Positions 14,326 through 54,745 of a DNA stretch of 64,000 nt are shown piece after piece. The notes under the pieces were generated by a model. The model did not search any database. It saw only the letters and a list, made by a program, of their open reading frames with translations, and was not told the origin of the DNA. The DNA is taken from contig OZ024766.1 of the NCBI GenBank assembly GCA_964016885.1, forward strand, positions 14,012,001 to 14,076,000. The letters run 5' to 3'. A program made the translations under genes and the position numbers. This stretch comes from Eledone cirrhosa. Lineage: Eukaryota. Position 1 is the first letter of the stretch. Every line of letters begins with the position of its first letter.

Positions 14326-14630
14326 AATGTAGGAGGTGAGTTTTATTGTGGTACAATAAAGCAATGCAGATATCGGATAAGAAGCACTCTACAGTTTGTA
14401 GGACTGGAGTATACATAATATAAGATCAAAAGATGGTTAAAGGAGTTCCATGTATTTTATTATGCGCATTTAAAACTGCACTATCCACAAGTGTTTTTTT
14501 AGCCTTCATATCATGTTCTCCTGTTTTATCTGATGAAAACACAAATATTATTGCATGATGATGTTTGTTTTTGAAATGCGCATAATAAAATACATGGAAC
14601 TCCTTTAACCATCTTTTGATCTTATATTAT
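14326..14630 (+). mobile_element. ~305-bp hammerhead-bearing cassette within (TA)n, probably a Penelope-like element pLTR or retrozyme fragment
   Basis: Also present at about 19530-19834, 24449-24753, 29908-30212, 35716-36020, 39689-39993 and 54471-54775. Empty sites at about 5105, 9825, 45115, 49870 and 59610. Contains the hammerhead motif and a 57-bp inverted repeat. The Penelope-like assignment is inferred. Confidence 0.6.
14515..14600 (+). ncRNA. Type I minimal hammerhead ribozyme motif
   Basis: Stem I tgttttat/ataaaata; core CTGATGA at 14530-14536; ~15-bp stem II at 14537-14572; GAAA at 14573-14576; palindromic stem III ATGCGCAT; AUA triplet with predicted cut after 14584. Confidence 0.75.
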
Positions 14631-14947
14631 ATTTACATATATATATATTTATATTTATATTTCTGGCTATTTCTGGCTGTCGATGGTCCTATTCAGGCCA
14701 CTGGGATGACGTTGTTCAACGAGTGTATTTTTAAAAAAATGCAACAAGTGGTTCAAATCATTCGCAGATTTGCATTTGCTGTGTAAACGCAGATGGTTAT
14801 TTTTCTTCTCATTTGGTGAACATCCAAGAATTTAACTGCTGTGATTTACGGATTAATAGGTGAAATATATTTCTTACTTAAAGAGCCAGGAACCCAACGG
14901 CTGAGCTCCGGCCAGAGATCAGCAGTTGGGGTCCTGACTCTTTTCCT

Positions 14948-15016
<69 letters not shown>

Positions 15017-17872
15017 ACGAAGGAAATGTGGTAAGGAACCAGGTGGACCATAACGCACCAAAGTACTCAATACTTGAGGTGGTAGAGTGGGTAATAGGAA
15101 CCTTATTATATATTTATATATATATATATATAAATAATATATTAATAAATGGAAACTATATTTATAAAACCATATTTATTTCATTATACATATTTCAAGG
15201 GCAACCAAGGCAAACTGTTGAGTGCTTTATATCAGTTATAAAAATGTTTAAGCTTATTGAATCCCAACAAATTAAATATAACCTCTGCATATATATATAT
15301 TTATATATATATATATAAATTTATATAATACAACATTAGAATTACTACTACATTTTACTTTCTATCTCTGTCTCTCACATCTCTTTCTCTCCCTCTATCT
15401 CCCTCTCTCGATATCCCTCTCTTTCTCTCACCCCCCTCTCTCTCTCTATCTCTCTCTATCTCTCCTCCTGTCTCTCCCATACACTTACCTAAGGTCATGT
15501 AATTTAACTGGGTGTGACTTTCTCAAAAGTTAATACAAAGACTTGCTTTCAACTGACAGAAACATAGCTACAATGTTGCACACTCATATCATGTGTCTGT
15601 ATGGCTGACTGCCTGAACTTCATACAGAAATAAAAAACCCCACACAACCAACATTCTGGGGTTGATAAAATATAATTGTTTCTAATTATATTGACTAATT
15701 ATATTTACGCTAATTATATTTACGAATAATATTGACTAATAATATTGACTAATTATATTGACTAATTATATTTACTAATAATATTGACTAATAATATTGA
15801 CTAATTATATTGACTAATTATATTGACTAATTATATTTACTAATAATATTGACTAATAATATTGACTAATTATATTTACTAATAATATTGACTAATAATA
15901 TTGACTTATTATATTGACTAATTATATTGACTAATTATATTGACTAATTATATTGACTAATTATATTTACTAATAATATTGACTAATTATATTTACTAAT
16001 AATATTGACTAATAATATTGACTAATTATATTGACTAATTATATTGACTAATTATATTGACTAATTATATTGACTAATTATATTGACTAATTATATTGAC
16101 TAATTATATTTACTAATAATATTGACTAATTATATTTACTAATAATATTGACTAATTATATTGACTAATTATATTGACTAATTATATTGACTAATTATAT
16201 TTACTAATAATATTGACTAATAATATTGACTAATTATATTGACTAATTATATTTACTAATTATATTGACTAATTATATTGACTAATTATATTGACTAATT
16301 ATATTGACTAATTATATTGACTAATTATATTTACTAATAATAGTAACTAATTATATGAACTAATAATTATTTCTACATTAGCCACAAGGCCAGCAATTAC
16401 CCAGTACATTACTGGTACTTTATTTTATCGACCCCGTAAGGATGAAAGGCAAAGTTAACCTCATTAACTAATTATATTGACTAATAATATTAACTAATTA
16501 TATTGACTAATTATATTAACTAATAATATTAACTAATATTATCACCTAATAATATTAACTAATAACATTCACTAATTATATTAACTAATAATATTAACTA
16601 ATATTATCAACTAATAATATTCATTAATAATTTAAATAATGTTTACATTAGGCACAAGGCCAGCAATTACCCCAGTGTATTACTGGTACTTTATTTTATC
16701 AACCCCGTAAGGATGAAGGGCAAAGTTAACCTCGGCGGGATTTGAATTAGTTAATATTATTCGGTGGATTGGCAGTATCGGTGGAGCGTCGGACGCCATG
16801 CTTTGATGCATAGAGTTACGGCCCTTAGTCAATATAATTAGTAAATATTATTAGTTAATATTATTAGTTAATATAATTAGTTAATATTATTAGTTAATAT
16901 AATTAGTTAATATTATTAGTTAATATTATTAGTTAATATAATTAGTTAATATTATTAGTTAATATTATTAGTTAATATAATTAGTTAATATTATTAGTTA
17001 ATATAATTAGTTAATATTATTAGTTAATATTATTAGTTAATATAATTAGTTAATATTATTAGTTAATATTATTAGTTAATATTATTAGTCAATATAATTA
17101 GTTAATATTATTAATTAATATAATTAGTTAATATTATTAGTCAATAATAACATTAATGGCAGTGGATTGGCAGTATCAGTGGAGGGTGGGACGCCATGCT
17201 TTGATGCATAGAGTTACGGCCCTTGCCATTCTGAGTTCAAATCCCACCGAGGTTAACTTTGCCTTTCATCCTTACGGGGTCGATAAAATAAAGTAGCAGT
17301 AATACACTGGGGTAATTGCTGGCCTTGTGCCTAACGTAGAAACAATTATTAACTAATATTACTAACTAATAATATTGATTGTTGACTAGAAATTTAGAGA
17401 TTATTTTAATGGTTTCTGATTTAGATGCAAGGCCAACACATTTGGGGAAGGGGTGTTGATTGACCCCAGTGTGTTACTGGTACTTTATTTTATCAACCCA
17501 GTAAGGATGAAGGGCAAAGCTTACCTTGATGGGATTTGAACTCAGAACGTAAAGGGCCGTAACTGGGTTCAAATCCTACTGAAGTTATAGCTCTGGCTTT
17601 CATCCTAACAGGGTTGATAAAGTAAAGTACCAGTAACGTACTGGGGTTGATAAAGTAAAGTACCAGTAACGTACTGGGGTTGATAAAGTAAAGTACCAGT
17701 AACGTACTGGCGTTGATAAAGTAAAGTACCAGTAACGAACTGGGGTTGATAAAGTAAACTACCAGTAATGTACTGGGGTTAATAAAATAAAGTACCAGTA
17801 ATGTACTGGGGTTGATAAAATAAAGTACCTGGACTGGTGAGAGATAAAAGCTGAGATATGAAAATAACTAAC

Positions 17873-18010
17873 CTTTCTGACAACTGTTTCTTTCATAACC
17901 TGGAGCACATCTACCCCTTGAACAGATCCCTAATTCCACATTACACCTGTTGTTATCTTCACAATGACACACCTGATCACAGTTGGCACCAAGTCTTCCA
18001 CTACTGCACA
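17873..18010 (-). CDS. EGF-like exon, copy 4 (G>R variant)
   Basis: Change at 17891 gives GYERNSC; AG/GT intact. Confidence 0.86.
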
Positions 18011-19499
18011 CTGTAACAGGAAAACATTGGTGTAGATCAGGGATTGGCAACTTCTTTGCCTCCATGGGCCGGACGAACGCCATAAAAGAATAATTATGGA
18101 AAATTACACAAGCTAAAATTTAATCTCGAGTGTTGACTATACTATTCATTTCTCAAATCTTGAATTATATTCACAAATACCTCTGAATCCTGTGATTTCC
18201 CTCCTTGAAATGATGGAAAATGCACATAATTTTTATTTCAAAGTTGATGTTCCCACAACTGTAGCTTTTTTTCAAAGACAACAATATGGTTATACATTTC
18301 ATTTACGAGCTGTGTTTTACCTTGAAGTTGTAAATTTAAGTTATTTAACCCTTTAGCACTTACATTACTCTATATTTACTATTGTAATGTCACAGTAAAC
18401 ACTTTATCTTATATAGTTATCTCACATAATATTGAATCTATGAGATTTTGATATTATTTATTTTGAGAAGAATACCTTAACGTCAGTATGAGTGGCTAGT
18501 TACAGCCGGTTTGAACAGAAAAAAGTGAGAGATTTCTGGCCGGATATGGCCGGTTTAAATGCTAAAGGGTTAAACGAGTCACAATATCCTCAATAAATAC
18601 CAAAGTTGTAACAGCAGGCCTTTTATTGTATTCGAAAGGAATAATACGTATTATTCTTTTATAATCTTTTATAATCTCTATAATTGTATTATTCTTTATC
18701 GAAAGGTTGTGAGTTCAATTCTCCGACCGGTTAATGTGTTGTTTCCTTGAGCAAGACACTTTATTTCAAATTGCTCCAGTTTACTCAGCTGTAGAAATGA
18801 GATGATAGGGACTGGAGTCCCTATCATTCCACTGTAAAGTGGTCGTAGAGGTGCCACGGCAAAAAATCACCCAGCACTCACTGTAAATGAGGTTGGTTTT
18901 AGGAAGGGCATCAAGCTGTAGAAATCAAGCCAGAATCAGTTCCTGTCCCACTCTTGCAAGCAGGGAAAAGGGGACGTAAAATGAAATGATTTCATAATTC
19001 AGGGGTTGATAAAATATAGTACCAGTGATATCCTGGAGTAGATTTAATAGAATAGCTTAACACACACTCACATATATATATATATCTACTAACCAAAGTA
19101 TCGCGTGATCTGGTGCGTTATGGTCCACCTCGTTCCTTACCATACTTCCTACCACACACACACATATATAGATATATACTTATAAATATATACAGAATAA
19201 GGAGCAGGTATTACAATAACCTGGGGTTCAAGGGCCCTCACCTCTTCAACAAGCTGCCAAGGAATTTGAGAGATCTGCATGGTGTGGACGTGGATGTTTT
19301 CAAGGAACATCTCGACACCCTGTTACCAGGATCCTGGATGAGCCCACAGCATGGTTCGAAGGTAACCTAAGGGCAGCAACAACGAACCCCCTCTTTGCCA
19401 AATGGCCAACCAACACAGGTTGGAGAAAGAATGTGTAACAAGGGCATGCCCCAGCATGGCCTCAACTGGATCGCTGGAACACGTTAAAAGAGTAAAAGA

Positions 19500-19532
<33 letters not shown>

Positions 19533-19718
19533 GTAGGAGGTGAGTTTTATTGTAGTACAATAAAGCAATGCAGATATCGGATAAGAAGCACTCTACAGTT
19601 TGTAGGACTGGAGTATACATAATATAAGATCAAAAGATGGTTAAAGGAGTTCCATGTATTTTATTATGCGCATTTAAAACTGCACTATCCACAAGTGTTT
19701 TTTTAGCCTTCATATCAT

Positions 19719-19804
19719 GTTCTCCTGTTTTATCTGATGAAAACACAAATATTATTGCATGATGATGTTTGTTTTTGAAATGCGCATAATAAAATACATG
19801 GAAC
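19719..19804 (+). ncRNA. Type I minimal hammerhead ribozyme motif
   Basis: Same sequence as 14515-14600. Confidence 0.75.
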
Positions 19805-20151
19805 TCCTTTAACCATCTTTTGATCTTATATTATATATACATATATATATATTTATATTTATATTTCTGGCTATTTCTGGCTGTCGATGGTCCTATTCAG
19901 GCCACTGGGATGACGTTGTTCAACGAGTGTATTTTTAAAAAAATGCAACAAGTGGTTCAAATCATTCGCAGATTTGCATTTGCTGTGTAAACGCAGATGG
20001 TTATTTTTCTTCTCATTTGGTGAACATCCAAGAATTTAACTGCTGTGATTTACGGATTAATAGGTGAAATATATTTCTTACTTAAAGAGCCAGGAACCCA
20101 ACGGCTGAGCTCCGGCCAGAGATCAGCAGTTGGGGTCCTGACTCTTTTCCT

Positions 20152-20202
<51 letters not shown>

Positions 20203-22788: not shown

Positions 22789-22926
22789 CTTTCTGACAAC
22801 TGTTTCCTTCATAACCTGGAGCACATCTACCCCTTGAACAGATCCCTAATTCCACATTACACCTGTTGTTATCTTCACAATGACACACCTGATCACAGTT
22901 GGCACCAAGTCTTCCACTACTGCACA
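22789..22926 (-). CDS. EGF-like exon, copy 5
   Basis: Identical to copy 1. Confidence 0.88.
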
Positions 22927-24637
22927 CTGTAACAGGAAAACATTGGTGTAGATCAGGGATTGCCAACTTCTTTGCCTCCATGGGCCGGACGAACGCCATA
23001 AAAGAATAATTATGGAAAATTACACAAGCTAAAATTTTTATCTCGAGTGTTGACTATACTATTCATTTCTCAAATCTTGAATTATATTCACAAATACCTC
23101 TGAATCCTGTGATTTCCCTCCTTGAAATGATGGAAAATGCACATAATTTTTATTTCAAAGTTGATGTTCCCACAACTGTAGCTTTTTTTCAAAGGCAACA
23201 ATGTGGTTATACATTTCATTTACGAGCTGAGTTTTACCTTGAAGTTGTAAATTTAAGTTATTTAACCCTTTAGCACTTACATTACTCTATATTTACTATT
23301 GTAATGTCACAGTAAACACTTTATCTTATATAGTTATCTCACATAATATTGAATCTATGAGATTTTGATATTATTTATTTTGAGAAGAATACCTTAACGT
23401 CAGTATGAGTGGCTAGTTACAGCCGGTTTGAACAGAAAAAAGTGAGAGATTTCTGGCCGGATATGGCCGGTTTAAATGCTAAAGGGTTAAACGATTCACA
23501 ATATCCTCAATAAATACCAAAGTTGTAACAGCAGGCCTTTTATTGTATTCGAAAGGAATAATACGTATTATTCTTTTATAATCTTTTATAATCTCTATAA
23601 TTGTATTATTCTTTATCGAAAGGTTGTGAGTTCAATTCTCCGACCGGTTAATGTGTTGTTTCCTTGAGCAAGACACTTTATTTCAAATTGCTCCAGTTTA
23701 CTCAGCTGTAGAAATGAGATGATAGGGACTGGGGTCCCTATCATTCCACTGTAAAGTGGTCCTAGAGGTGCCACGGCAAAAAATCACCCAGCACTCACTG
23801 TAAATGAGGTTGGTTTTAGGAAGGGCATCAAGCTGTAGAAATCAAGCCAGAATCAGTTCCTGTCCCACTCTTGCAAGCAGGGAAAAGGGGACGTAAAATG
23901 AAATGATTTCATAATTCAGGGGTTGATAAAATATAGTACCAGTGATATCCTGGGGTAGATTTAATAGAATAGCTTAACTCGCACTCACATATATATATAT
24001 CTACTAACCAAAGTATCGCGTGATCTGGTGCGTTATGGTCCACCTCGTTCCTTACCATACTTCCTACCACACACACACACACACACATATATAGATATAT
24101 ACTTATAAATATATACAGAATAAGGAGCAGGTATTACAATAACCTGGGGTTCAAGGGCCCTCACCTCTTCAACAAGCTGCCAAGGAATTTGAGAGATCTG
24201 CATGGTGTGGACGTGGATGTTTTCAAGGAACATCTCGACACCCTGTTACCAGGATCCTGGATGAGCCCACAGCATGGTTCGAAGGTAACCTAAGGGCAGC
24301 AACAACGAACCCCCTCTTTGCCGAATGGCCAACCAACACAGGTTGGAGAAAGAATGTGTAACAAGAGCATGCCCCAGCATGGCCTCAACTGGATCGCTGG
24401 AACACGTTAAAAGAGAAAAAGAGAATATATATATATATATATACATATAATGTAGGAGGTGAGTTTTATTGTGGTACAATAAAGCAATGCAGATATCGGA
24501 TAAGAAGCACTCTACAGTTTGTAGGACTGGAGTATACATAATATAAGATCAAAAGATGGTTAAAGGAGTTCCATGTATTTTATTATGCGCATTTAAAACT
24601 GCACTATCCACAAGTGTTTTTTTAGCCTTCATATCAT

Positions 24638-24723
24638 GTTCTCCTGTTTTATCTGATGAAAACACAAATATTATTGCATGATGATGTTTGTTTTTGAAAT
24701 GCGCATAATAAAATACATGGAAC
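24638..24723 (+). ncRNA. Type I minimal hammerhead ribozyme motif
   Basis: Same sequence as 14515-14600. Confidence 0.75.
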
Positions 24724-25070
24724 TCCTTTAACCATCTTTTGATCTTATATTATATTTACATATATATATATTTATATTTATATTTCTGGCTATTTCTGGC
24801 TGTCGATGGTCCTATTCAGGCCACTGGGATGACGTTGTTCAACGAGTGTATTTTTAAAAAAATGCAACAAGTGGTTCAAATCATTCGCAGATTTGCATTT
24901 GCTGTGTAAACGCAGATGGTTATTTTTCTTCTCATTTGGTGAACATCCAAGAATTTAACTGCTGTGATTTACGGATTAATAGGTGAAATATATTTCTTAC
25001 TTAAAGAGCCAGGAACCCAACGGCTGAGCTCCGGCCAGAGATCAGCAGTTGGGGTCCTGACTCTTTTCCT

Positions 25071-25127
<57 letters not shown>

Positions 25128-28388: not shown

Positions 28389-30096
28389 CTGTAACAGGAA
28401 AACATTGGTGTAGATCAGGGATTGCCAACTTCTTTGCCTCCATGGGCCGGACGAACGCCATAAAAGAATAATTATGGAAAATTACACAAGCTAAAATTTT
28501 TATCTCGAGTGTCGACTATACTATTCATTTCTCAAATCTTGAATTATATTCACAAATACCTCTGAATCCTGTGATTTCCCTCCTTGAAATGATGGAAAAT
28601 GCACATAATTTTTATTTCAAAGTTGATGTTCCCACAACTGTAGCTTTTTTTCAAAGGCAACAATATGGTTATACATTTCATTTACGAGCTGAGTTTTACC
28701 TTGAAGTTGTAAATTTAAGTTATTTAACCCTTTAGCACTTACATTACTCTATATTTACTATTGTAATGTCACAGTAAACACTTAATTTTATATAGTTATC
28801 TCACATAATATTGAATCTATAAGATTTTGATATTATTTATTTTGAGAAGAATACCTTAACGTCAGTATGAGTGGCTAGTTACAGCCGGTTTGAACAGAAA
28901 AAAGTGAGAGATTTCTGGCCGGATATGGCCGGTTTAAATGCTAAAGGGTTAAACGAGTCACAATATCCTCAATAAATACCAAAGTTGTAACAGCAGGCCT
29001 TTTATTGTATTCGAAAGGAATAATACGTATTATTCTTTTATAATCTTTTATAATCTCTATAATTGTATTATTCTTTATCGAAAGGTTGTGAGTTCAATTC
29101 TCCGACCGGTTAACGTGTTGTTTCCTTGAGCAAACACTTTATTTCAAATTGCTCCAGTTTACTCAGCTGTAGAAATGAGATGATAGGGACTGGAGTCCCT
29201 ATCATTCCACTGTAAAGTGGTCGTAGCGGTGCCACGGCAAAAAATCACCCAGCACTCACTGTAAATGAGGTTGGTTTTAGGAAGGGCATCAAGCTGTAGA
29301 AATCAAGCCAGAATCAGTTCCTGTCCCACTCTTGCAAGCAGGGAAAAGGGGACGTAAAATGAAATGATTTCATAATTCAGGGGTTGATAAAATATAGTAC
29401 CAGTGATATCCTGGGGTAGATTTAATAGAATAGCTTAACACACACTCACATATATATATATATCTACTAACCAAAGTATCGCGTGATCTGGTGCGTTATG
29501 GTCCACCTCGTTCCTTACCATACTTCCTACCACACACACACACACACATATATAGATATATACTTATAAATATATACAGAATAAGGAGCAGGTATTACAA
29601 TAACCTGGGGTTCAAGGGCCCTCACCTCTTCAACAAGCTGCCAAGGAATTTGAGAGATCTGCATGGTGTGGACGTGGATGTTTTCAAGGAACATCTCGAC
29701 ACCCTGTTACCAGGATCCTGGATGAGCCCACAGCATGGTTCGAAGGTAACCTAAGGGCAGCAACAACGAACCCCCTCTTTGCCAAATGGCCAACCAACAC
29801 AGGTTGGAGAAAGAATGTGTAACAAGGGCATGCCCCAGCATGGCCTCAACTGGATCGCTGGAACACGTTAAAAGAGTAAAAGAGAATATATATATATATA
29901 TACATATAATGTAGGAGGTGAGTTTTATTGTAGTACAATAAAGCAATGCAGATATCGGATAAGAAGCACTCTACAGTTTGTAGGACTGGAGTATACATAA
30001 TATAAGATCAAAAGATGGTTAAAGGAGTTCCATGTATTTTATTATGCGCATTTAAAACTGCACTATCCACAAGTGTTTTTTTAGCCTTCATATCAT

Positions 30097-30182
30097 GTTC
30101 TCCTGTTTTATCTGATGAAAACACAAATATTATTGCATGATGATGTTTGTTTTTGAAATGCGCATAATAAAATACATGGAAC
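30097..30182 (+). ncRNA. Type I minimal hammerhead ribozyme motif
   Basis: Same sequence as 14515-14600. Confidence 0.75.
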
Positions 30183-30729
30183 TCCTTTAACCATCTTTTG
30201 ATCTTATATTATATATACATATATATATATTTATATTTATATTTCTGGCTATTTCTGGCTGTCGATGGTCCTATTCAGGCCACTGGGATGACGTTGTTCA
30301 ACGAGTGTATTTTTAAAAAAATGCAACACGTGGTTCAAATCATTCGCAGATTTGCATTTGCTGTGTAAACGCAGATGGTTATTTTTCTTCTCATTTGGTG
30401 AACATCCAAGAATTTAACTGCTGTGATTTACGGATTAATAGGTGAAATATATTTCTTACTTAAAGAAATATATACAAAGGAGATTAATCATTTTAAAAGG
30501 TATCTATATTTGAAGTTCTAGTCAAGCTTTAATTAGTTACCTACCTAGCTATGTGTGCCTACATTCTTTACAAATTATTCCCTGTGATTGTTTCATGTAT
30601 TTATTATATATATATATATATATGTCAATCTATTTCTAGTTGATATGTAATGCTCGGATCTAATCTTTCAGCTTATTCTACGCATGGTGCATGTCTCTCA
30701 GACATGACAACCCTTAATTTTAATTTGGG

Positions 30730-30787
<58 letters not shown>

Positions 30788-30836
30788 ATATATATATATC
30801 TCAGAGTACTCAATACTTAGGGTAGAAGAGTGGGTA

Positions 30837-30910
30837 ATAGGAAAAGAGCCAGGAACCCAACAGCTGAGCTCTGGCCAGAGATCAGCAGTTGGGTTCCTGA
30901 CTCTTTTCCT

Positions 30911-30912
<2 letters not shown>
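30837..30912. repeat. 76-bp near-perfect palindrome without a spacer
   Basis: ataggaaaagagccaggaacccaacagctgagctctgg|ccagagatcagcagttgggttcctgactcttttcctat: 38-bp arms with 3 mismatches. Full length also at about 40628-40703; left-truncated in most units (e.g. 236-305). Confidence 0.9.
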
Positions 30913-30947
<35 letters not shown>

Positions 30948-34195: not shown

Positions 34196-35904
34196 CTGTA
34201 ACAGGAAAACATTGGTGTAGATCAGGGATTGCCAACTTCTTTACCTCCATGGGCCGGACGAACGCCATAAAAGAATAATTATGGAAAATTACACAAGCTA
34301 AAATTTTTATCTCGAGTGTCGACGATACTATTCATTTCTCAAATCTTGAATTATATTCACAAATACCTCTGAATCCTGTGATTTCCCTCCTTGAAATGAT
34401 GGAAAATGCACATAATTTTTATTTCAAAGTTGATGTTCCCACAACTCTAGCTTTTTTTCAAAGGCAACAATATGGTTATACATTTCATTTACGAGCTGAG
34501 TTTTAACTTGAAGTTGTAAATTTAAGTTATTTAACCCTTTAGCACTTACATTATTCTATATTTACTATTGTAGTTTCACAGTAAACACTTTATCTTATAT
34601 AGTTATCTCACATAATATTGAATCTATGAGATTTTGATATTATTTATTTTGAGAAGAATACCTTAACGTCAGTATGAGTGGCTAGTTACAGCCGGTTTGA
34701 ACAGAAAAAAGTGAGAGATTTCTGGCCGGATATGGCCGGTTTAAATGCTAAAGGGTTAAACGAGTCACAATATCCTCAATAAATACCAAAGTTGTAACAG
34801 CAGGCTTTTTATTGTATTGGAAAGGAATAATACGTATTATTCTTTTATAATCTTTTATAATCTCTATAATTGTATTATTCTTTATCGAAAGGTTGTGAGT
34901 TCAATTCTCAGACCGGGTAATGTGTTGTTTCCTTGAGCAAGACACTTTATTTCAAATTGCTCCAGTTTACTCAGCTGTAGAAATGGGATGATAGGGACTG
35001 GGGTCCCTATCATTCCACTGTAAAGTGGTCCTAGAGGTGCCACGGCAAAAAATCACCCAGCAGTCACTGTAAATGAGGTTGGTTTTAGGAAGGGCATCAA
35101 GCTGAGGAAATCAAGCCAGAATCAGTTCCTGTCCCACTCTTGCAAGCAGGGAAAAGGGGACGTAAAATGAAATGATTTCATAATTCAGGGGTTGATAAAA
35201 TATAGTACCAGTGATATCCTGGGGTAGATTTAATAGAATAGCTTAACACACACTCACATATATATATATATCTACTAACCAAAGTATCGCGTGATCTGGT
35301 GCGTTATGGTCCACCTCGTTCCTTACCATACTTCCTACCACACACACACACACACATATATAGATATATACTTATAAATATATACAGAATAAGGAGCAGG
35401 TATTACAATAACCTGGGGTTCAAGGGCCCTCACCTCTTCAACAAGCTGCCAAGGAATTTGAGAGATCTGCATGGTGTGGACGTGGATGTTTTCAAGGAAC
35501 ATCTCGACACCCTGTTACCAGGATCCTGGATGAGCCCACAGCATGGTTCGAAGGTAACCTAAGGGCAGCAACAACGAACCCCCTCTTTGCCAAATGGCCA
35601 ACCAACACAGGTTGGAGAAAGAATGTGTAACAAGGGCATGCCCCAGCATGGCCTCAACTGGATCGCTGGAACACGTTAAAAGAGTAAAAGAGAATATATA
35701 TATATATATACATATAATGTAGGAGGTGAGTTTTATTGTGGTACAATAAAGCAATGCAGATATCGGATAAGAAGCACTCTACAGTTTGTAGGACTGGAGT
35801 ATACATAATATAAGATCAAAAGATGGTTAAAGGAGTTCCATGTATTTTATTATGCGCATTTAAAACTGCACTATCCACAAGTGTTTTTTTAGCCTTCATA
35901 TCAT

Positions 35905-35990
35905 GTTCTCCTGTTTTATCTGATGAAAACACAAATATTATTGCATGATGATGTTTGTTTTTGAAATGCGCATAATAAAATACATGGAAC
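35905..35990 (+). ncRNA. Type I minimal hammerhead ribozyme motif
   Basis: Same sequence as 14515-14600. Confidence 0.75.
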
Positions 35991-36575
35991 TCCTTTAACC
36001 ATCTTTTGATCTTATATTATATATACATATATATATATTTATATTTATATTTCTGGCTATTTCTGGCTGTCGATGGTCCTATTCAGGCCACTGGGATGAC
36101 GTTGTTCAACGAGTGTATTTTTAAAAAAATGCAACAAGTGGTTCAAATCATTCGCAGATTTGCATTTGCTGTGTAAACGCAGATGGTTATTTTTCTTCTC
36201 ATTTGGTGAACATCCAAGAATTTAACTGCTGTGATTTACGGATTAATAGGTGAAATATATTTCTTACTTAAAGAAATATATACAAAGGAGATTAATCATT
36301 TTAAAAGGTATCTATATTTGAAGTTCTAGTCAAGCTTTAATTAGTTACCTACCTAGCTATGTGTGCCTACATTCTTTACAAATTATTCCCTGTGATTGTT
36401 TCATGTATTTATTATATATATATATATATATGTCAATCTATTTCTAGTTGATATGTAATGCTCGGATCTAATCTTTCAGCTTATTCTACGCATGGTGCAT
36501 GTCTCTCAGACATGACAACCCTTAATTTTAATTTGGGATATATATATATATACATATATATATACATATATATAG

Positions 36576-36619
<44 letters not shown>

Positions 36620-38032
36620 CTCAGAGTACTCAATACTTAGGGTAGAAGAGTGGGTAATAGGAAAAGAGCCAGGAACCCAACAGCTGAGCTCTGGCCAGAG
36701 ATCCTTACGGGGTCGATAAAATAAAGTAGCAGTAATTCACTGGGGTAATTGCTGGCCTTGTGCCTAACGTAGAAACAATTATTAACTAATATTTCTAACT
36801 AATAATATTGATTGTTGACTAGAAATTTAGAGATTATTTTAATGGTTTCTGATTTAGATGCAAGGCCAACACATTTGGGGAAGGGGTGTTGATTGACCCC
36901 AGTGTGTTACTGGTACTTTATTTTATCAACCCAGTAAGGATGAAAGGCAAAGCTTACCTTGATGGGATTTGAACTCAGAACGTAAAGGGCCGTAACTGGG
37001 TTCAAATCCTACTGAAGTTATAGCTCTGGCTTTCATCCTAACAGGGTTGATAAAGTAAAGTACCAGTAACGTACTGGGGTTGATGAAGTAAAGTACCTGT
37101 AACGTTCTTGGGTTGATAAAGTAAGGTACCAGTAATGTACTGGGGTTGATAAAGTAAAGTACCAGTAATGTACTGGGGTTGATAAAGTAAAGTACCTGTA
37201 ACGTTCTTGGGTTGATAAAGTAAGGTACCAGTAATGTACTGGGGTTGATAAAGTAAAGTACCAGTAATGTACTGGGTTTGATAAAGTAAAGTATCAGTAA
37301 CGTACTGGGGTTGATAAAGTAAAGTACCAGTAACGTACTGGGGTTGATAAAGTAAAGTACCAGTAATGTACGGGGGGTTGATAAAGTAAGGTACCAGTAA
37401 TGTACTGGGGTTGATAAAGTAAAGTACCAGTAATGTACTGGGGTTGATAAGGTAAAGTACCTGTAACGTTCTTGGGTTGATAAAGTAAGGTACCAGTAAT
37501 GTACTGGGGTTGATAAAGTAAAGTACCAGTAATGTACTGGGTTTGATAAAGTAAAGTATCAGTAACGTACTGGGGTTGATAAAGTAAAGTACCTGTAACG
37601 TTCTTGGGTTGATAAAGTAAAGTACCAGTAATGTACGGGGTTTGATAAAGTAAAGTACCAGTAATGTACTGGGTTTGATAAAGTAAAGTATCAGTAACGT
37701 ACTGGGGTTGATAAAGTAAAGTACCAGTAATGTACTGGGGTTGATAAAGTAAAGTACCAGTAACGTACTGGGGTTGATAAAGTAAAGTACCAGGAATGTA
37801 CTGGGGTTGATAAAGTAAAGTACCAGTAATGTACTGGGGTTGATAAAATAAAGTACCAGTAACGTACTGGGGTTGATAAAGTAAAGTACCAGTAAAGTAC
37901 TGGGGTTGACAAAATAAAGTACCAGTAATGTACTGGGATTGATAAAATAAAGTACCAGTAATGTACTGGGGTTGATAAAATAAAGTACCTGGACTGGTGA
38001 GAGATAAAAGCTGAGATATGAAAATAACTAAC

Positions 38033-38170: not shown

Positions 38171-39877
38171 CTGTAACAGGAAAACATTGGTGTAGATCAG
38201 GGATTGCCAACTTCTTTGCCTCCATGGGCCGGACGAACGCCATAAAAGAATAATTATGGAAAATTACACAAGCTAAAATTTTTATCTCGAGTGTTGACTA
38301 TACTATTCATTTCTCAAATCTTGAATTATATTCACAAATACCTCTGAATCCTGTGATTTCCCTCCTTGAAATGATGGAAAATGCACATAATTTTTATTTC
38401 AAAGTTGATGTTCCCACAACTGTAGCTTTTTTTCAAAGGCAACAATGTGGTTATACATTTCATTTACGAGCTGAGTTTTACCTTGAAGTTGTAAATTTAA
38501 GTTATTTAACCCTTTAGCACTTACATTACTCTATATTTACTATTGTAATGTCACAGTAAACACTTTATCTTATATAGTTATCTCACATAATATTGAATCT
38601 ATGAGATTTTGATAATATTTATTTTGAGAAGAATACCTTAACGTCAGTATGAGTGGCTAGTTACAGCCGGTTTGAACAGAAAAAAGTGAGAGATTTCTGG
38701 CCGGATATGGCCGGTTTAAATGGTAAAGGGTTAAACGAGTCACAATATCCTCAATAAATACCAAAGTTGTAACAGCAGGCCTTTTATTGTATTCGAAAGG
38801 AATAATACGTATTATTCTTTTATAATCTTTTATAATCTCTATAATTGTATTATTCTTTATCGAAAGGTTGTGAGTTCAATTCACAGACCGGTTAATGTGT
38901 TGTTTCCTTGAGCAAGACACTTTATTTCAAATTGCTCCAGTTTACTCAGCTGTAGAAATGAGATGATAGGGACTGGAGTCCCTATCATTCCACTGTAAAG
39001 TGGTCGTAGAGGTGCCACAGCAAAAAATCACCCAGCACTCACTGTAAATGAGGTTGGTTTTAGGAAGGGCATCAAGCTGTAGAAATCAAGCCAGAATCAG
39101 TTCCTGTCCCACTCTTGCAAGCAGGGAAAAGGGGACGTAAAATGAAATGATTTCATAATTCAGGGGTTGATAAAATATAGTACCAGTGATATCCTGGGGT
39201 AGATTTAATAGAATAGCTTAACACACACTCACATATATATATATATCTACTAACCAAAGTATCGCGTGATCTGGTGCGTTATGGTCCACCTCGATCCTTA
39301 CCATACTTCCTACCACACACACACACACACACATATATAGATATATACTTATAAATATATACAGAATAAGGAGCAGGTATTACAATAACCTGGGGTTCAA
39401 GGGCCCTCACCTCTTCAACAAGCTGCCAAGGAATTTGAGAGATCTGCATGGTGTGGACGTGGATGTTTTCAAGGAACATCTCGACACCCTGTTACCAGGA
39501 TCCTGGATGAGCCCACAGCATGGTTCGAAGGTAACCTAAGGGCAGCAACAACGAACCCCCTCTTTGCCAAATGGCCAACCAACACAGGTTGGAGAAAGAA
39601 TGTGTAACAAGGGCATGCCCCAGCATGGCCTCAACTGGATCGCTGGAACACGTTAAAAGAGTAAAAGAGAATATATATATATACATATAATGTAGGAGGT
39701 GAGTTTTATTGTAGTACAATAAAGCAATGCAGATATCGGATAAGAAGCACTCTACAGTTTGTAGGACTGGAGTATACATAATATAAGATCAAAAGATGGT
39801 TAAAGGAGTTCCATGTATTTTATTATGCGCATTTAAAACTGCACTATCCACAAGTGTTTTTTTAGCCTTCATATCAT

Positions 39878-39963
39878 GTTCTCCTGTTTTATCTGATGAA
39901 AACACAAATATTATTGCATGATGATGTTTGTTTTTGAAATGCGCATAATAAAATACATGGAAC
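39878..39963 (+). ncRNA. Type I minimal hammerhead ribozyme motif
   Basis: Same sequence as 14515-14600. Confidence 0.75.
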
Positions 39964-40526
39964 TCCTTTAACCATCTTTTGATCTTATATTATATATACA
40001 TATATATATATTTATATTTATATTTCTGGCTATTTCTGGCTGTCGATGGTCCTATTCAGGCCACTGGGATGACGTTGTTCAACGAGTGTATTTTTAAAAA
40101 AATGCAACAAGTGGTTCAAATCATTCGCAGATTTGCATTTGCTGTGTAAACGCAGATGGTTATTTTTCTTCTCATTTGGTGAACATCCAAGAATTTAACT
40201 GCCGTGATTTACGGATTAATAGGTGAAATATATTTCTTACTTAAAGAAATATATACAAAGGAGATTAATCATTTTAAAAGGTATCTATATTTGAAGTTCT
40301 AGTCAAGCTTTAATTAGTTACCTACCTAGCTATGTGTGCCTACATTCTTTACAAATTATTCCCTGTGATTGTTTCATGTATTTATTATATATATATATAT
40401 ATATGTCAATCTATTTCTAGTTGATATGTAATGCTCGGATCTAATCTTTCAGCTTATTCTACGCATGGTGCATGTCTCTCAGACATGACAACCCTTAATT
40501 TTAATTTGGGATATATATATATATAC

Positions 40527-40562: not shown

Positions 40563-40701
40563 GTTTGTGTGTGTGTGTATATATATATATCTCAGAGTAC
40601 TCAATACTTAGGGTAGAAGAGTGGGTAATAGGAAAAGAGCCAGGAACCCAACAGCTGAGCTCTGGCCAGAGATCAGCAGTTGGGGTCCTGACTCTTTTCC
40701 T

Positions 40702-40738
<37 letters not shown>

Positions 40739-40877: not shown

Positions 40878-40932
<55 letters not shown>

Positions 40933-43463
40933 CAACATTAGAATTACTACTACATTTTACTTTCTATCTCTCTGCCTCTTCCACTTTTAGTCTCCATTCT
41001 TCCCACTTTCTCTCTCTCCCTCTCTCTCTGTCTCTCTCACATCTCTTTCTCTCCCTCTATCTCCCTCTCTCGATATCCCTCTCTTTCTCTCTCTCTCTCT
41101 GTCTCTATCGCCCCCTCTCTCTCTATCTCTCCTCCTGTCTCTCCCATACACTTACCTAAGGTCATGTAATTTAACTGGGTGTGACTTTCTCTAAAAGTTA
41201 ATACAAAGACTTGCTTTCAACTGACAGAAACATAGCTACGATGTTGCACACTCATATCATGTGTCTGTATGGCTGACTGTCTGAACTTCATACAGAAATA
41301 AAAAACCCACACAACCAACATTCTGGGGTTGATAAAATATAATTGTTTCTAATTATATTGACTAATTATATTTACTAATAATATTGAGTAATAATATTGA
41401 CTAATTATATTGACTAATTATATTTACTAATAATATTGAGTAATAATATTGACTAATTATATTGACTAATTATATTGACTAATTATATTGAGTAATAATA
41501 TTGACTAATTATATTTACTAATTATATTGACTAATTATATTGACTAATTATATTGACTAATTATATTGACTTATTATATTGACTAATTATATTTACTAAT
41601 AGTATTGACTAATAATATTGACTAATTATATTGACTAATTATATTGACTAATTATATTGACTAATTATATTTACTAATTATATTTACTAATTATATTGAC
41701 TAATTATATTTACTAATAATAGTAACTAATTATATGAACTAATAATTGTTTCTACGTTAGGCACAAGGCCAGCAATTACCCAGTACATTACTGGTACTTT
41801 ATTTTATCGACCCCGTAAGGATGAAAGGCAAAGTTAACCTCATTAACTAATTATATTGACTAATTATATTAACTAATAATATTAACTAATATTATCACCT
41901 AATAATATTAACTAATAACATTCACTAATTATATTAACTAATAATATTAACTAATATTATCAACTAATAATATTCACTAATAATTTAAATAATTTTTACA
42001 TTAGGCACAAGGCCAGCAATTACCCCAGTGTATTACTGGTACTTTATTTTATCAACCCCGTAAGGATGAAAGGCAAAGTTAACCTCGGCGGGATTTGAAT
42101 TAGTTAATATTATTCGGTGGATTGTCAGTATCGGTGGAGCGTCGGACGCCATGCTTTGATGCATAGAGTTATATAATTAGTAAATATTATTAGTTAATAT
42201 TATTAGTTAATATAATTAGTTAATATTATTAGTTAATATAATTAGTTAATATAATTAGTTAATATTATTAGTAAATATTATTAGTTAATATTATTAGTTA
42301 ATATTATTTAGTTAATATTATTAGTTAATATTATTAGTCAATATAATTAGTTAATATTATTAGTTAATATAATTAGTTAATATTATTAGTTAATATTATT
42401 AGTCAATAATAATATTAATGGCAGTGGATTGGCAGTATCAGTGGAGGGTCGGACGCCATGCTTTGATGCATAGAGTTACGGCCCTTGCCATTCTGAGTTC
42501 AAATCCCACCGAGGTTAACTTTGCCTTTCATCCTTACGGGGTCGATAAAATAAAGTAGCAGTAATTCACTGGGGTAATTGCTGGCCTTGTGCCTAACGTA
42601 GAAACAATTATTAACTAATATTACTAACTAATAATATTGATTGTTGACTAGAAATTTAGAGATTATTTAATGGTTTCTGATTTAGATGCAAGGCCAACAC
42701 ATTTGGGGAAGGGGTGTTGATTGACCCCAGTGTGTTACTGGTACTTTATTTTATCAACCCAGTAAGGATGAAAGGCAAAGCTTACCTTGATGGGATTTGA
42801 ACTCAGAACGTAAAGGGCCGTAACTGGGTTCAAATCCTACTGAAGTTATAGCTCTGGCTTTCATCCTAACAGGGTTGATAAAGTAAAGTACCAGTAACGT
42901 ACTGGGGTTGATAAAGTAAAGTACCTGTAACGTTCTTGGGTTGATAAAGTAAGGTACCAGTAATGTACTGGGGTTGATAAAGTAAAGTACCAGTAATGTA
43001 CTGGGTTTGAAAAAGTAAAGTATCAGTAACGTACTGGGGTTGATAAGGTGAAGTACCAGTAACGTACTGGGGTTGATAAAATAAAGTAGCAGTAATGTAC
43101 GGGGGTTGATAAAGTAAAGTACCAGTAACGTACTGGGGTTGATAAAGTAAAGTACCAGTAATGTACGGGGGTTGATAAAGTAAAGTACCAGTAACGTACT
43201 GGGGTTGATAAAGTAAAGTACCAGTAATGTACGGGGGTTGATAAAGTAAAGTACCAGTAATATACTGGGGTTGATAAAGTAAAGTACCAGTAACGTACTG
43301 GGGTTGATAAAGTAAAGTACCAGTAAAGTACTGGGGTTGACAAAATAAAGTACCAGTAATGTACTGGGATTGATAAAATAAAGTACCAGTAATGTACTTG
43401 GGTTGATAAAATAAAGTACCTGGACTGGTGAGAGATAAAAGCTGAGATATGAAAATAACTAAC

Positions 43464-45096: not shown

Positions 45097-45127
<31 letters not shown>

Positions 45128-45426
45128 TTATATTTATATTTCTGGCTATTTCTGGCTGTCGATGGTCCTATTCAGGCCACTGGGATGACGTTGTTCAACG
45201 AGTGTATTTTAAAAAAAATGCAACAAGTGGTTCAAATCATTCGCAGGTTTGCATTTGCTGTGTAAACGCAGATGGTTATTTTTCTTCTCATTTGGTGAAC
45301 ATCCAAAAATTTAACTGCTGTGATTTACGGATTAATAGGTGAAATATATTTCTTACTTAAAGAGCCAGGAACCCAACAGCTGAGCTCTGGCCAGAGATCA
45401 GCAGTTGGGGTCCTGACTCTTTTCCT

Positions 45427-45507
<81 letters not shown>

Positions 45508-45594
45508 ACAAAGGAAATGTGGTAAGGAACCAGGTGGACCATAACGCACCAAAGTACTCAATACTTGAGGTAGTAGAGTGGGTAATAGGAACCT

Positions 45595-45630
<36 letters not shown>

Positions 45631-48224: not shown

Positions 48225-48362
48225 CTTTCTCACAACTGTTTCCTTCATAACCTGGAGCACATCTACCCCTTGAACAGATCCCTAATTCCACATTACACCT
48301 GTTGTTATCTTCACAATGACACACCTGATCACAGTTGGCACCAAGTCTTCCACTACTGCACA
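48225..48362 (-). CDS. EGF-like exon, copy 10 (Q>E variant)
   Basis: Change at 48231, same as copy 2. Confidence 0.88.
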
Positions 48363-49852: not shown

Positions 49853-49883
<31 letters not shown>

Positions 49884-50179
49884 TTATATTTATATTTCTG
49901 GCTATTTCTGGCTGTCGATGGTCCTATTCAGGCCACTGGGATGACGTTCAACGAGTGTATTTTTAAAAAAATGCAACACGTGGTTCAAATCATTCGCAGA
50001 TTTGCATTTGCTGTGTAAACGCAGATGGTTATTTTTCTTCTCATTTGGTGAACATCCAAGAATTTAACTGCTGTGATTTACGGATTAATAGGTGAAATAT
50101 ATTTCTTACTTAAAGAGCCAGGAACCCAACGGCTGAGCTCCGGCCAGAGATCAGCAGTTGGGGTCCTGACTCTTTTCCT

Positions 50180-50221
<42 letters not shown>

Positions 50222-50369
50222 TATATTAATAAATGGAAACTATATTTATAAAACCATATTTATTTTATTATACATATTTCAAGGGCAACCAAGGCAAACT
50301 GTTGAGTGCTTTATATCAGTTATAAAAATGTTTAAGCTTATTGAATACCAACAAATTAAATATAACCTC

Positions 50370-50414
<45 letters not shown>

Positions 50415-52815
50415 ATAAATATATATAATACAACATTAGAATTACTACTACATTTTACTTTCTATCTCTGTCTCTCACATCTCTTTCTCTCCCTCTATCT
50501 CCCTCTCTCGATATCCCTCTCTTTCTCTCACCCCCCTCTCTCTCTCTATCTCTCTCTATCTCTCCTCCTGTCTCTCCCATACACTTACCTAAGGTCATGT
50601 AATTTAACTGGGTGTGACTTTCTCAAAAGTTAATACAAAGACTTGCTTTCAACTGACAGAAACATAGCTACAATGTTGCACACTCATATCATGTGTCTGT
50701 ATGGCTGACTGCCTGAACTTCATACAGAAATAAAAAACCCCACACAACCAACATTCTGGGGTTGATAAAATATAATTGTTTCTAATTATATTGACTAATT
50801 ATATTTACGAATAATATTGACTAATAATATTGACTAATTATATTGACTAATTATATTTACTAATAATATTGACTAATAATATTGACTAATTATATTGACT
50901 AATTATATTGACTAATTATATTTACTAATTATATTTACTAATAATATTGACTAATAATATTGACTAATTATATTTACTAATAATATTGACTAATAATATT
51001 GACTTATTATATTGACTAATTATATTGACTAATTATATTGACTAATTATATTGACTAATTATATTTACTAATAATATTGACTAATTATATTTACTAATAA
51101 TATTGACTAATTATATTGACTAATTATATTGACTAATTATATTGACTAATTATATTTACTAATAATATTGACTAATAATATTGACTAATTATATTGACTA
51201 ATTATATTGACTAATTATATTTACTAATAATATTGACTAATAATATTGACTAATTATATTGACGAATTATATTGACTAATTATATTTACTAATTATATTG
51301 ACTAATTATATTGACTAATAATATTAACTAATAATATTAACTAAATAATATTAACTATCAAGGGCGGTGGATTGGCAGTATCGGTATAAGGTCGGACGCC
51401 GTGCTTTCCAGCATAGTTACGTCCCTTTACGATCTGAGTTCAAATCCCGCCGAGGTAGACTTTGCCTTTCATCCTTACGGGGTCGATAAAATAAAGTACC
51501 AGTTATGCACTGGGTAATTGCTGGCCTTGTGCCTAAAGTAGAAACAATTATTAGTAAATATAATTAGTTAATATTATTAGTTAATATAATTAGTTAATAT
51601 TATTAGTTAATATTATTAGTCAATAATAATATTAATGGCAGTGGATTGGCAGTATCAGTGGAGGGTCGGACGCCATGCTTTGATGCATAGAGTTACGGCC
51701 CTTGCCATTCTGAGTTCAAATCCCACCGAGGTTAACTTTGCCTTTCATCCTTACGGGGTCGATAAAATAAAGTAGCAGTAATTCACTGGGGTAATTGCTG
51801 GCCTTGTGCCTAACGTAGAAACAATTATTAACTAATATTTCTAACTAATAATATTGATTGTTGACTAGAAATTTAGAGATTATTTTAATGGTTTCTGATT
51901 TAGATGCAAGGCCAACACATTTGGGGAAGGGGTGTTGATTGACCCCAGTGTGTTACTGGTACTTTATTTTATCAACCCAGTAAGGATGAAAGGCAAAGCT
52001 TACCTTGATGGGATTTGAACTCAGAACGTAAAGGGCCGTAACTGGGTTCAAATCCTACTGAAGTTATAGCTCTGGCTTTCATCCTAACAGGGTTGATAAA
52101 GTAAAGTACCAGTAACGTACTGGGGTTGATAAAGTAAAGTACCTGTAACGTTCTTGGGTTGATAAAGTAAGGTACCAGTAATGTACTGGGGTTGATAAAG
52201 TAAAGTACCAGTAATGTACTGGGTTTGATAAAGTAAAGTACCAGTAACGTACTGGGGTTGATAAAGTAAAGTACCAGTAATGTACGGGGGGTTGATAAAG
52301 TAAGGTACCAGTAATGTACTGGGGTTGATAAAGTAAAGTACCAGTAATGTACTGGGGTTGATAAGGTAAAGTACCTGTAACGTTCTTGGGTTGATAAAGT
52401 AAGGTACCAGTAATGTACTGGGGTTGATAAAGTAAAGTACCAGTAATGTACTGGGTTTGATAAAGTAAAGTATCAGTAACGTACTGGGGTTGATAAAGTA
52501 AAGTACCAGTAACGTACTGGGGTTGATAAAGTAAAGAACCAGTAATGTACGGGGGGTTGATAAAGTAAAGTACCAGTAACGTACTGGGGTTGATAAAGTA
52601 AAGTACCAGTAATGTACTGGGGTTGATAAAGTAAAGTACCAGTAACGTACTGGTGTTGATAAAGTAAAGTACCAGTAAAGTACTGGGGTTGACAAAATAA
52701 AGTACCAGTAATGTACTGGGATTGATAAAATAAAGTACCAGTAATGTACTGGGGTTGATAAAATAAAGTACCTGGAATGGTGAGAGATAAAAGCTGAGAT
52801 ATGAAAATAACTAAC

Positions 52816-52953
52816 CTTTCTGACAACTGTTTCCTTCATAACCTGGAGCACATCTACCCCTTGAACAGATCCCTAATTCCACATTACACCTGTTGTTATC
52901 TTCACAATGACACACCTGATCACAGTTGGCACCAAGTCTTCCACTACTGCACA
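52816..52953 (-). CDS. EGF-like exon, copy 11
   Basis: Identical to copy 1. Confidence 0.88.
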
Positions 52954-54659
52954 CTGTAACAGGAAAACATTGGTGTAGATCAGGGATTGCCAACTTCTTT
53001 GCCTCCATGGGCCGGACGAACGCCATAAAAGAATAATTATGGAAAATTACACAAGCTAAAATTTAATCACGAGTGTTGACTATACTATTCATTTCTCAAA
53101 TCTTGAATTATATTCACAAATACCTCAGAATCCTGTGATTTCCCTCCTTGAAATGATGGAAAATGCACATAATTTTTATTTCAAAGTTGATGTTCCCACA
53201 ACTGTAGCTTTTTTTCAAATGTATATGGTTATACATTTCATTTACGAGCTGAGTTTTACCTTGAAGTTGTAAATTTAAGTTATTTAACCCTTTAGCACTT
53301 ACATTACTCTATATTTACTATTGTAATGTCACAGTAAACACTTTATCTTATATAGTTATCTCACATAATATTGAATCTATGAGATTTTGATATTATTTAT
53401 TTTGAGAAGAATACCTTAACGTCAGTATGAGTGGCTAGTTACAGCCGGTTTGAACAGAAAAAAGTGAGAGATTTCTGGCCGGATATGGCCGGTTTAAATG
53501 CTAAAGGGTTAAACGATTCACAATATCCTCAATAAATACCAAAGTTGTAACAGCAGGCCTTTTATTGTATTCGAAAGGAATAATACGTATTATTCTTTTA
53601 TAATCTTTTATAATCTCTATAATTGTATTATTCTTTATCGAAAGGTTGTGAGTTCAATTCTCCGACCGGGTAATGTGTTGTTTCCTTGAGCAAGACACTT
53701 TATTTCAAATTGCTCCAGTTTACTCAGCTGTAGAAATGAGATGATAGGGACTGGGGTCCCTATCATTCCACTGTAAAGTGGTCCTAGAGGTGCCACGGCA
53801 AAAAATCACCCAGCACTCACTGTAAATGAGGTTGGTTTTAGGAAGGGCATCAAGCTGTAGAAATCAAGCCAGAATCAGTTCCTGTCCCACTCTTGCAAGC
53901 AGGGAAAAGGGGACGTAAAATGAAATGATTTCATAATTCAGGGGTTGATAAAATATAGTACCAGTGATATCCTGGGGTAGATTTAATAGAATAGCTTAAC
54001 TCGCACTCACATATATATATATCTACTAACCAAAGTATCGCGTGATCTGGTGCGTTATGGTCCACCTCGTTCCTTACCATACTTCCTACCACACACACAC
54101 ACACACACATATATAGATATATACTTATAAATATATACAGAATAAGGAGCAGGTATTACAATAACCTGGGGTTCAAGGGCCCTCACCTCTTCAACAAGCT
54201 GCCAAGGAATTTGAGAGATCTGCATGGTGTGGACGTGGATGTTTTCAAGGAACATCTCGACACCCTGTTACCAGGATCCTGGATGAGCCCACAGCATGGT
54301 TCGAAGGTAACCTAAGGGCAGCAACAACGAACCCCCTCTTTGCCGAATGGCCAACCAACACAGGTTGGAGAAAGAATGTGTAACAAGAGCATGCCCCAGC
54401 ATGGCCTCAACTGGATCGCTGGAACACGTTAAAAGAGAAAAAGAGAATATATATATATATATATACATATAATGTAGGAGGTGAGTTTTATTGTGGTACA
54501 ATAAAGCAATGCAGATATCGGATAAGAAGCACTCTACAGTTTGTAGGACTGGAGTATACATAATATAAGATCAAAAGATGGTTAAAGGAGTTCCATGTAT
54601 TTTATTATGCGCATTTAAAACTGCACTATCCACAAGTGTTTTTTTAGCCTTCATATCAT

Positions 54660-54745
54660 GTTCTCCTGTTTTATCTGATGAAAACACAAATATTATTGCA
54701 TGATGATGTTTGTTTTTGAAATGCGCATAATAAAATACATGGAAC
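54660..54745 (+). ncRNA. Type I minimal hammerhead ribozyme motif
   Basis: Same sequence as 14515-14600. Confidence 0.75.

Follow-up and report, generated by a model that had tools for sequence, protein, structure and literature searches.

A type I hammerhead motif within a recurrent 301-bp insertion, likely of Penelope-like origin, in an EGF-exon array of Eledone cirrhosa

Results

A hammerhead motif recurs in seven units of an EGF-exon array

We analysed a 64,000-nucleotide stretch of contig OZ024766.1 from Eledone cirrhosa, referred to below as the window, with positions counted from its first letter. The window is a tandem array of units of approximately 4–6 kb, each carrying one 138-nt exon with AG/GT borders that encodes an EGF-like repeat, and seven of the units additionally contain a hammerhead ribozyme motif on the strand opposite to the exons. 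The features are listed in Table 1, where it can be seen that the reference motif at 14515–14600 has the anatomy of a type I hammerhead. Both core boxes (CUGANGA and GAAA) and the NUH triplet are present, and the core is surrounded by three helices and open at stem I; the conserved G10.1-C11.1 pair that closes stem II is replaced by A10.1-U11.1 in all seven copies.

A first-pass annotation of this DNA had described a hammerhead in seven units, six of them consecutive and 4.0–5.8 kb apart, and had assigned it to type I with the tiny palindromic stem III known from Penelope-like elements (PLEs), retrozymes and newt or schistosome satellites. The motif, its spacing and its type were borne out. 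The seven + strand cores share an identical context reaching 25 nt upstream and 85 nt downstream of the core, their successive spacings are 5204, 4919, 5459, 5808 and 3973 nt and then 14782 nt, and the pairing agrees with the type proposed. No hammerhead was matched by the structural descriptor on the minus strand of the window.

When one 5202-nt unit was shuffled with its dinucleotide composition preserved, a relaxed descriptor (stems of at least 4 bp) found a match in five of 3000 shuffles, and all stricter descriptors found none in 3000. The folding energy of the isolated motif was no better than that of shuffles (z −0.44 to −0.97). Because the seven copies differ by only 0–1 base in 302, we count them as one observation. 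The listed matches to Rfam miRNA and snoRNA families fell under the gathering scores and reflect TA tracts or inverted arms. We conclude that the hammerhead motif is real and above chance.

Table 1. Coordinates of the exons, the insertion copies and the parts of the reference copy within the window
Feature	Position	Strand	Remarks
138-nt symmetrical AG/GT exon, 8-cysteine EGF-like repeat	12671–12808	-	one of 13
Other 12 exons (starts)	3454, 8174, 17873, 22789, 28251, 34058, 38033, 43464, 48225, 52816, 57960, 62807	-	
Whole insertion, reference copy, 301 bp	14327–14627		in intronic (TA)n tract, 1.52 kb from next exon; core 14530
Insertion copy 2	19531–19831		core 19734
Insertion copy 3	24450–24750		core 24653
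Insertion copy 4	29909–30209		core 30112
Insertion copy 5	35717–36017		core 35920
Insertion copy 6	39690–39990		core 39893
Insertion copy 7	54472–54772		core 54675
Empty (insertion-free) site	5081–5135		filled versus empty comparison
Further empty sites (starts)	9801, 45088, 49846, 59584		filled versus empty comparison
Target-site duplication, left copy, 14 bp	14313–14326	+	contains the single C of the TA tract
Target-site duplication, right copy	14628–14641	+	its first 3 nt are shared with the element end
Inverted, 5'-truncated element copy	14327–14471	-	starts inside the GAAA box, continues into the extension
3' extension, tail-like, about 80 nt	14327–14408	-	only in the inverted copy
Forward element copy	14468–14627	+	about 7 nt of the family 5' end missing
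Type I hammerhead	14515–14600	+	reference copy; descriptor and pairing analysis
Stem I extension	14515–14519/14596–14600	+	5 bp
Stem I	14522–14529/14585–14592	+	8 bp, one G-U
Core	14530–14536	+	CUGAUGA
Stem II	14537–14572	+	15 bp over 16 positions; three G-U, one C-U mismatch
GAAA box	14573–14576	+	core box
Stem III palindrome	14576–14583	+	8 nt, short palindromic type
AUA triplet	predicted cut after 14584	+	NUH cleavage triplet

The motif lies within an insertion that is absent from five units

What the first-pass annotation had missed is that each motif is part of an insertion whose arms are inverted repeats of each other. Among the 12 TA-tract sites that could be scored (those at both ends of the window were excluded), seven are filled and five are empty. 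The insertion has a GC content of 0.31, and its 14-bp flanks are identical to each other in three copies and differ at one position in the remaining four; empty sites have a single occurrence of the C-containing word of the TA tract that these flanks repeat.

Within the insertion, arms of 67 nt at 14409–14475 and 14570–14636 are 96% complementary, with 57 bp of perfect pairing between 14415–14471 and 14574–14630. The inverted copy contributes a second stem III, AUA triplet and stem I 3' strand, which together form a substrate half-site, and it is joined to the forward copy through a 4-nt microhomology at 14468–14471. The extension is predicted to form two small hairpins with AC-rich loops; on the minus strand one of them lies just past the nearer of two 3' ends of the element (see below) and the other approximately 14 nt before the far end, and an AATAAA word is also present in the extension on that strand. 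The loops are reminiscent of the AC-rich loop at which reverse transcription starts in the system of PMC11167929.

All seven copies share the same position and the same internal junction, with 0–1 differences in 302 bp, and the adjoining 1.66 kb shows 7–30 differences between filled units. We infer from these comparisons that a single insertion event was later spread through the array. Since one insertion would thus have been multiplied by duplication of the array, the regular spacing of the hammerheads is that of the array and not a property of the ribozyme.

The insertion belongs to a dispersed repeat family

Public reads were compared by mapping four (X1, X5, X6 and X21) of 23 listed sequencing runs on 14230–14740 at 80% likeness; no RNA run was among those listed. 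X1 and X21 carry one organism label, X1 possibly deriving from the same source as the window, and X5 and X6 come from two other organisms; the flanks were skipped as repeats by the mapping, so all depth falls on the insertion. In X1, 3317 contigs matched, with 48 in X5 and 37 in X6; X21 contributed 4895 reads, 4754 of them overlapping the stretch only in part. The summed depth in X1 reached 0.4–1.7 million across most of the insertion, against 7–35 for single listed records; this suggests thousands of family copies or more, a summed depth being no copy number. Many of the copies in the reads have unrelated flanks.

The ends of these copies are informative. Loose ends before 14468 have their last 7–9 letters in common in all four runs and then diverge, and agreement over the whole consensus was 0.68–0.79 in three runs. 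Joints connect nine left-arm positions (14359–14429) with 14468, and the intervening letters are a common set of 7–8, complete or in part; since these joints lead to one and the same 5' end, copies of the family differ in their inversion point. Loose ends before 14410 run into TA, in 32 contigs of X1, and mark the nearer 3' end. The pattern points to the fixed 5' end of a short element, approximately 260 nt by addition, rather than to random truncation of a long one.

Pattern scans of metagenome contigs, viral contigs and prokaryote genomes gave no matches, which is expected for an animal repeat and has no bearing on novelty. A literature search that covered few subscription papers returned no description of this family, although the supplementary hammerhead alignments of PMC4209133 and PMC8557442 could already include it.

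Variants in the family largely preserve the ribozyme pairing

We classed the 30 alleles listed between 14476 and 14608 by their counts in X21; left-arm rows and 19 unlisted rows lie outside this set. Nine of the ten listed alleles at pairs of stems I and II retain pairing. The tenth, T14572C, has a frequency of 0.20, the same as A14537G (0.20), and although the two are unphased, together they would give the canonical G10.1-C11.1. The first-pass annotation was right to flag the closing A-U as non-canonical, the G and C alleles each accounting for approximately 20% of X21 reads. For each of the four G-U wobbles in the window copy a Watson-Crick allele occurs among the reads, and the single listed core allele is at the free position N7. 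We consider this pattern consistent with selection on the ribozyme, but not proof of it. A candidate splice acceptor at 14501–14502, analogous to that of the Penelope intron, was rejected, as a fraction of 0.74 of the X21 reads have A instead of G at 14502.

The inverted arm is predicted to occlude the ribozyme

When the isolated motif was folded, stems I and II were predicted with probabilities of approximately 0.87, whereas stem III, with 2 bp, had a probability of 0.001 in the monomer and extended to 8 bp in the predicted dimer. Two isolated copies were predicted to prefer a double hammerhead (−40.9 kcal/mol, against −29.4 kcal/mol for two monomers), in keeping with the dimer action suggested by the first-pass annotation. 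That annotation had also proposed that read-through + strand transcripts are cut into unit-length RNAs antisense to the exons, and here the predictions point the other way. Over 57 bp the inverted arm pairs perfectly with the segment that runs from A13-A14 through stem III and the triplet to the stem I 3' strand, and once the arm is included the probability of stem I falls to approximately 3e-18 and the ribozyme fold could be forced only at a cost of approximately 27 kcal/mol. In transcript prefixes the block is predicted to arise once the 3' half of the ribozyme has been made: for starts between 14327 and 14460 it was seen in every tested prefix ending at or beyond 14592, with a stem I probability of at most 5e-5. 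Because the inverted arm buries the 3' half of the ribozyme, read-through + strand RNA is predicted to remain uncut. Activity of an internal promoter would give a short element RNA and not an exon-spanning antisense RNA; a sigma-70 promoter scan gave chance levels and is irrelevant to a eukaryote.

The claim that the minus-strand pre-mRNA would not be cut holds in so far as a complete ribozyme is missing from that strand, but the substrate half-site is present on it. A duplex of this half-site with the enzyme half, through two 8-bp arms, is predicted at −27.5 kcal/mol, and the half-site itself is predicted to be buried in the pre-mRNA hairpin with an opening cost of 43 kcal/mol. The folding predictions for the + strand suggest that the hammerhead is probably an inactive passenger at this locus.

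In all seven copies a perfect 57-bp hairpin would also form on the pre-mRNA strand, 1.52 kb from an exon, with a predicted minus-strand fold of −116 kcal/mol. It is a possible ADAR substrate, and the arms of neighbouring units could pair across an exon.

Other features of the array

The best Pfam match of the exon was EGF_STAB1-2 (E=1.1e-4; 22.9 bits, under the curated cut-off of 27), and a search for the 45-residue exon among longer proteins gave no candidate host protein. The 13 exons, between 3454 and 62944, are near-identical; the variants include a Cys-to-Trp change in the 34058 unit and Gly-to-Arg in the 17873 and 57960 units. The units themselves are mosaics. Those at 8143, 48194 and 62776 differ by 1–2 positions in up to 1.66 kb, and those at 43433 and 57929 by 2, implying recent higher-order duplications or conversion, as judged from these likenesses. 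The units at 30.5, 36.3 and 40.2 kb leave the common downstream segment at the same point and form a rearranged subfamily.

Minisatellites of 13 bp and 33 bp (for example, at 15682–17146 and 17611–17829) vary widely in copy number between units. The 33-bp type ranges from 6.6 to 28.6 copies per unit, minisatellite copy number explains much of the variation in unit length, and the 3973-nt unit is without 13-bp arrays (36274–36700). Every unit has a GC-richer imperfect hairpin (14880–14945), with longer forms at 30832–30916 and 40623–40707. It is probably another small repeat, and the hairpins at 30.8 and 40.6 kb gave sub-threshold matches to Rfam mir-9201. Directly before the TA tract of the insertion, 13985–14290 and its equivalents form the broken 3' end of a reading frame that we take to be like that of a long interspersed nuclear element (LINE); Pfam gave only a spurious weak match for this fragment. 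The intron repeats of the window that are like short interspersed nuclear elements (SINEs) presumably resemble octopus repeats. If they do, it is of interest that an annotation of Octopus vulgaris lists 31 recently active Penelope-like families, while 'ribozyme' occurs 0 times in its main text (PMC13282606).

Discussion

Comparison with known systems

The hammerheads of PLE pseudo-long terminal repeats have a palindromic helix III, a long helix II and a conserved G10.1-C11.1; they are mostly single motifs from truncated elements, with pairs on opposite strands, and show low activity even as dimers, on which they depend (Cervera and De la Pena, 2014, PMC4209133). The motif of the window resembles them in being of type I, in its small palindromic helix III and longer-than-usual helix II, in its predicted dependence on dimers, in being found singly within truncated or inverted copies and in its high variety within the genome. 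Its position near the 3' end of the element is likewise that of a PLE derivative. It differs in that stem II has approximately 15 bp rather than 6–8 bp, no extra nucleotide is present between 9 and 10.1, the closing pair is A10.1-U11.1 rather than G-C, and no open reading frame is linked to the insertion. Our literature search found nothing on the effect of A10.1-U11.1 on rate.

A second set of likenesses concerns the mode of insertion. Craig et al. (2021, PMC8557442) described PLE insertions that carry at their 5' end an inverted copy with 5' truncation, have a tail of 30–40 bp at one end and are biased towards (TA)n. Schostak et al. (2008, PMC2377424) reported target-site duplications and an internal promoter for a Penelope-like element, and AT-rich targets together with two start sites of reverse transcription that define the tail were reported by Frangieh et al. 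(2024, PMC11167929). The insertion studied here shares with these endonuclease-positive (EN+) elements the inverted 5'-truncated copy adjoining its 5' end, an extension at one end only, albeit of approximately 80 nt rather than 30–40, the AT-rich or (TA)n target and the target-site duplication. Unlike them it lacks a frame for a reverse transcriptase (RT) with endonuclease, and the 5' end of the forward copy is fixed across the family, whereas theirs is random. A further parallel is with the Sm-alpha and Sj-alpha SINE-like repeats of schistosomes, which are likewise short dispersed retroposons with a type I hammerhead (PMC6765202); the palindromic, dimer-type stem III and the inverted structure set the present insertion apart, and no promoter was identified in it.

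Origin of the insertion

We consider it likely that the type I hammerhead lies within a single insertion of a short non-autonomous Penelope-like element, which was duplicated with the array and is predicted to occlude its own ribozyme. Because the insertion has no open frame, it could only be a non-autonomous or truncated derivative of a PLE. In this scheme an autonomous Penelope-like partner would have supplied an RT/GIY-YIG protein, which reverse-transcribed a family RNA of approximately 260 nt at a (TA)n nick. Two cDNAs would have been made: a truncated one, with priming at the far 3' end, and a nearly complete one, with priming approximately 45–50 nt beyond the cut site. They would have been joined in inverted orientation through the 4-nt microhomology. 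Unequal crossing-over or gene conversion may then have carried the one copy into seven units. The ribozyme would serve the life cycle of the element in source copies, probably as a dimer through its palindromic stem III, and would be a passenger at this locus. In the published in vitro system the PLE ribozyme was protein-assisted and dispensable for insertion, and no RNA-seq ends at the cut site were reported (PMC11167929).

Several observations weigh against this reading. A six-frame check of the insertion gave no RT or GIY-YIG reading frame and no open frame, and no link of the insertion to an autonomous element was found, no genome-wide search for one having been made; since the defining RT/GIY-YIG protein is absent from the insertion, its membership of the PLEs is likely but not certain. 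The extension of approximately 80 nt exceeds the 30–40 of EN+ insertions. Of the check by Rfam and descriptor that the first-pass annotation had suggested, the descriptor part succeeded with seven matches, but Rfam gave no match to a hammerhead family either over the whole window at E up to 1 or over 14330–14625 at E up to 10. The evidence from variants is statistically not strong: the alleles are unphased, 19 rows are missing, transitions easily keep A-U and G-U pairs, and the probability that none of 11 strict core positions would vary by chance is P=0.07. Two single-locus variants, C14581G and C14467A, disrupt the palindrome. The depths that speak for an abundant family are sums and not copy numbers. 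As for occlusion, the folding results are equilibrium predictions; an RNA starting at 14468 escapes the arm, with a predicted stem I probability of 0.09–0.29, and the forward copy could therefore fold, given an internal promoter.

An alternative origin would be as a solo derivative of a tandem non-long terminal repeat retrozyme, with head-to-tail arrays of the approximately 260-nt monomer elsewhere whose RNA is cut to unit length and circularised. Metazoan retrozymes are tandem units of 150–450 bp (Cervera and De la Pena, 2020, PMC7229834), for which an origin from PLEs has been argued and monomers have been described (Li et al., 2026, bioRxiv 10.64898/2026.07.22.740005), and the insertion would fit this class in being non-coding, in its monomer length, low GC and type I hammerhead and in its presumed mobilisation by PLE proteins. 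In three of the four runs 4–5 nt are common to the far 3' end and to the letters that immediately precede the 5' end of the family, as at a circular junction, but upstream of the shared letters the consensus of the loose ends is unlike the 3' end of the element. The copy at this locus is single and inverted and not head-to-tail, an inverted arm does not figure in the retrozyme descriptions cited here, and the period of 4–6 kb belongs to an array of host exons. Among 15 of the 18 joints there was no change of strand, no backward step and no head-to-tail joint, a count that is weakened by the masking of 14230–14331. We regard a retrozyme origin as unlikely.

The reading in which a + strand transcript of the array is cut at each hammerhead into 4–6 kb RNAs antisense to single EGF exons, and so regulates the gene, would explain why seven intact cores lie in one orientation with one exon between consecutive sites. 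The flanks of the insertion are also less uniform than the insertion itself, a difference that could come from either recent spread or selection. Against these stand the predicted burial of the catalytic 3' half by the inverted arm, the distance of 4–6 kb between dimer partners, and the absence of the motif from five of the 12 units. The window copy moreover combines A10.1-U11.1 with four wobbles where the family has Watson-Crick alleles, and in vitro cleavage by hammerheads of the Penelope type is poor, that of dimers included (PMC4209133, PMC6765202). We find such regulation very unlikely; the family assignment of the first-pass annotation was broadly right, and regulation at the level of the array is not supported.

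Almost no weight can be given to a miniature inverted-repeat transposable element (MITE), that is, a non-autonomous DNA transposon with the 67-nt arms as terminal inverted repeats and the hammerhead as an incidental feature. The insertion is short, non-coding and in TA context, with long inverted arms, but the left arm begins 82 nt inside the end of the insertion, so that the repeats are neither terminal nor, as the inversion point and arm length vary among copies, fixed. The common TA/TAA MITEs have a target duplication of 2–3 bp, and the one found here is 14 bp. The hammerhead motif is also above chance, and the variable arm length already largely refutes this reading.

Implications

The favoured reading, a duplicated and self-occluded Penelope-like insertion, can be extended to an undescribed, very abundant SINE-like mini-Penelope family (approximately 260 nt, with a fixed 5' end and a selected hammerhead) whose insertions are self-silenced, whose RNA might cut host introns in trans at sense-strand half-sites and whose 57-bp hairpins, present next to some exons of the EGF gene and not others, might affect its splicing or editing; we think this extension extremely unlikely. 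The locus would be a host-regulatory finding only if trans cleavage or antisense processing were true.

The likely assignment would add to the Penelope-type elements a hammerhead-bearing family with a long stem II that is missed by Rfam. The build-up of inverted PLE insertions is listed as not understood in PMC8557442, and a family in which the 5' end is fixed while two 3' ends and numerous inversion points occur would offer a natural data set for their assembly. The filled and empty units of the array provide an internal control for effects on the splicing of identical exons. More generally, when ribozymes recur at regular intervals along a tandem array, they can all stem from a single transposon insertion that host duplication has multiplied.

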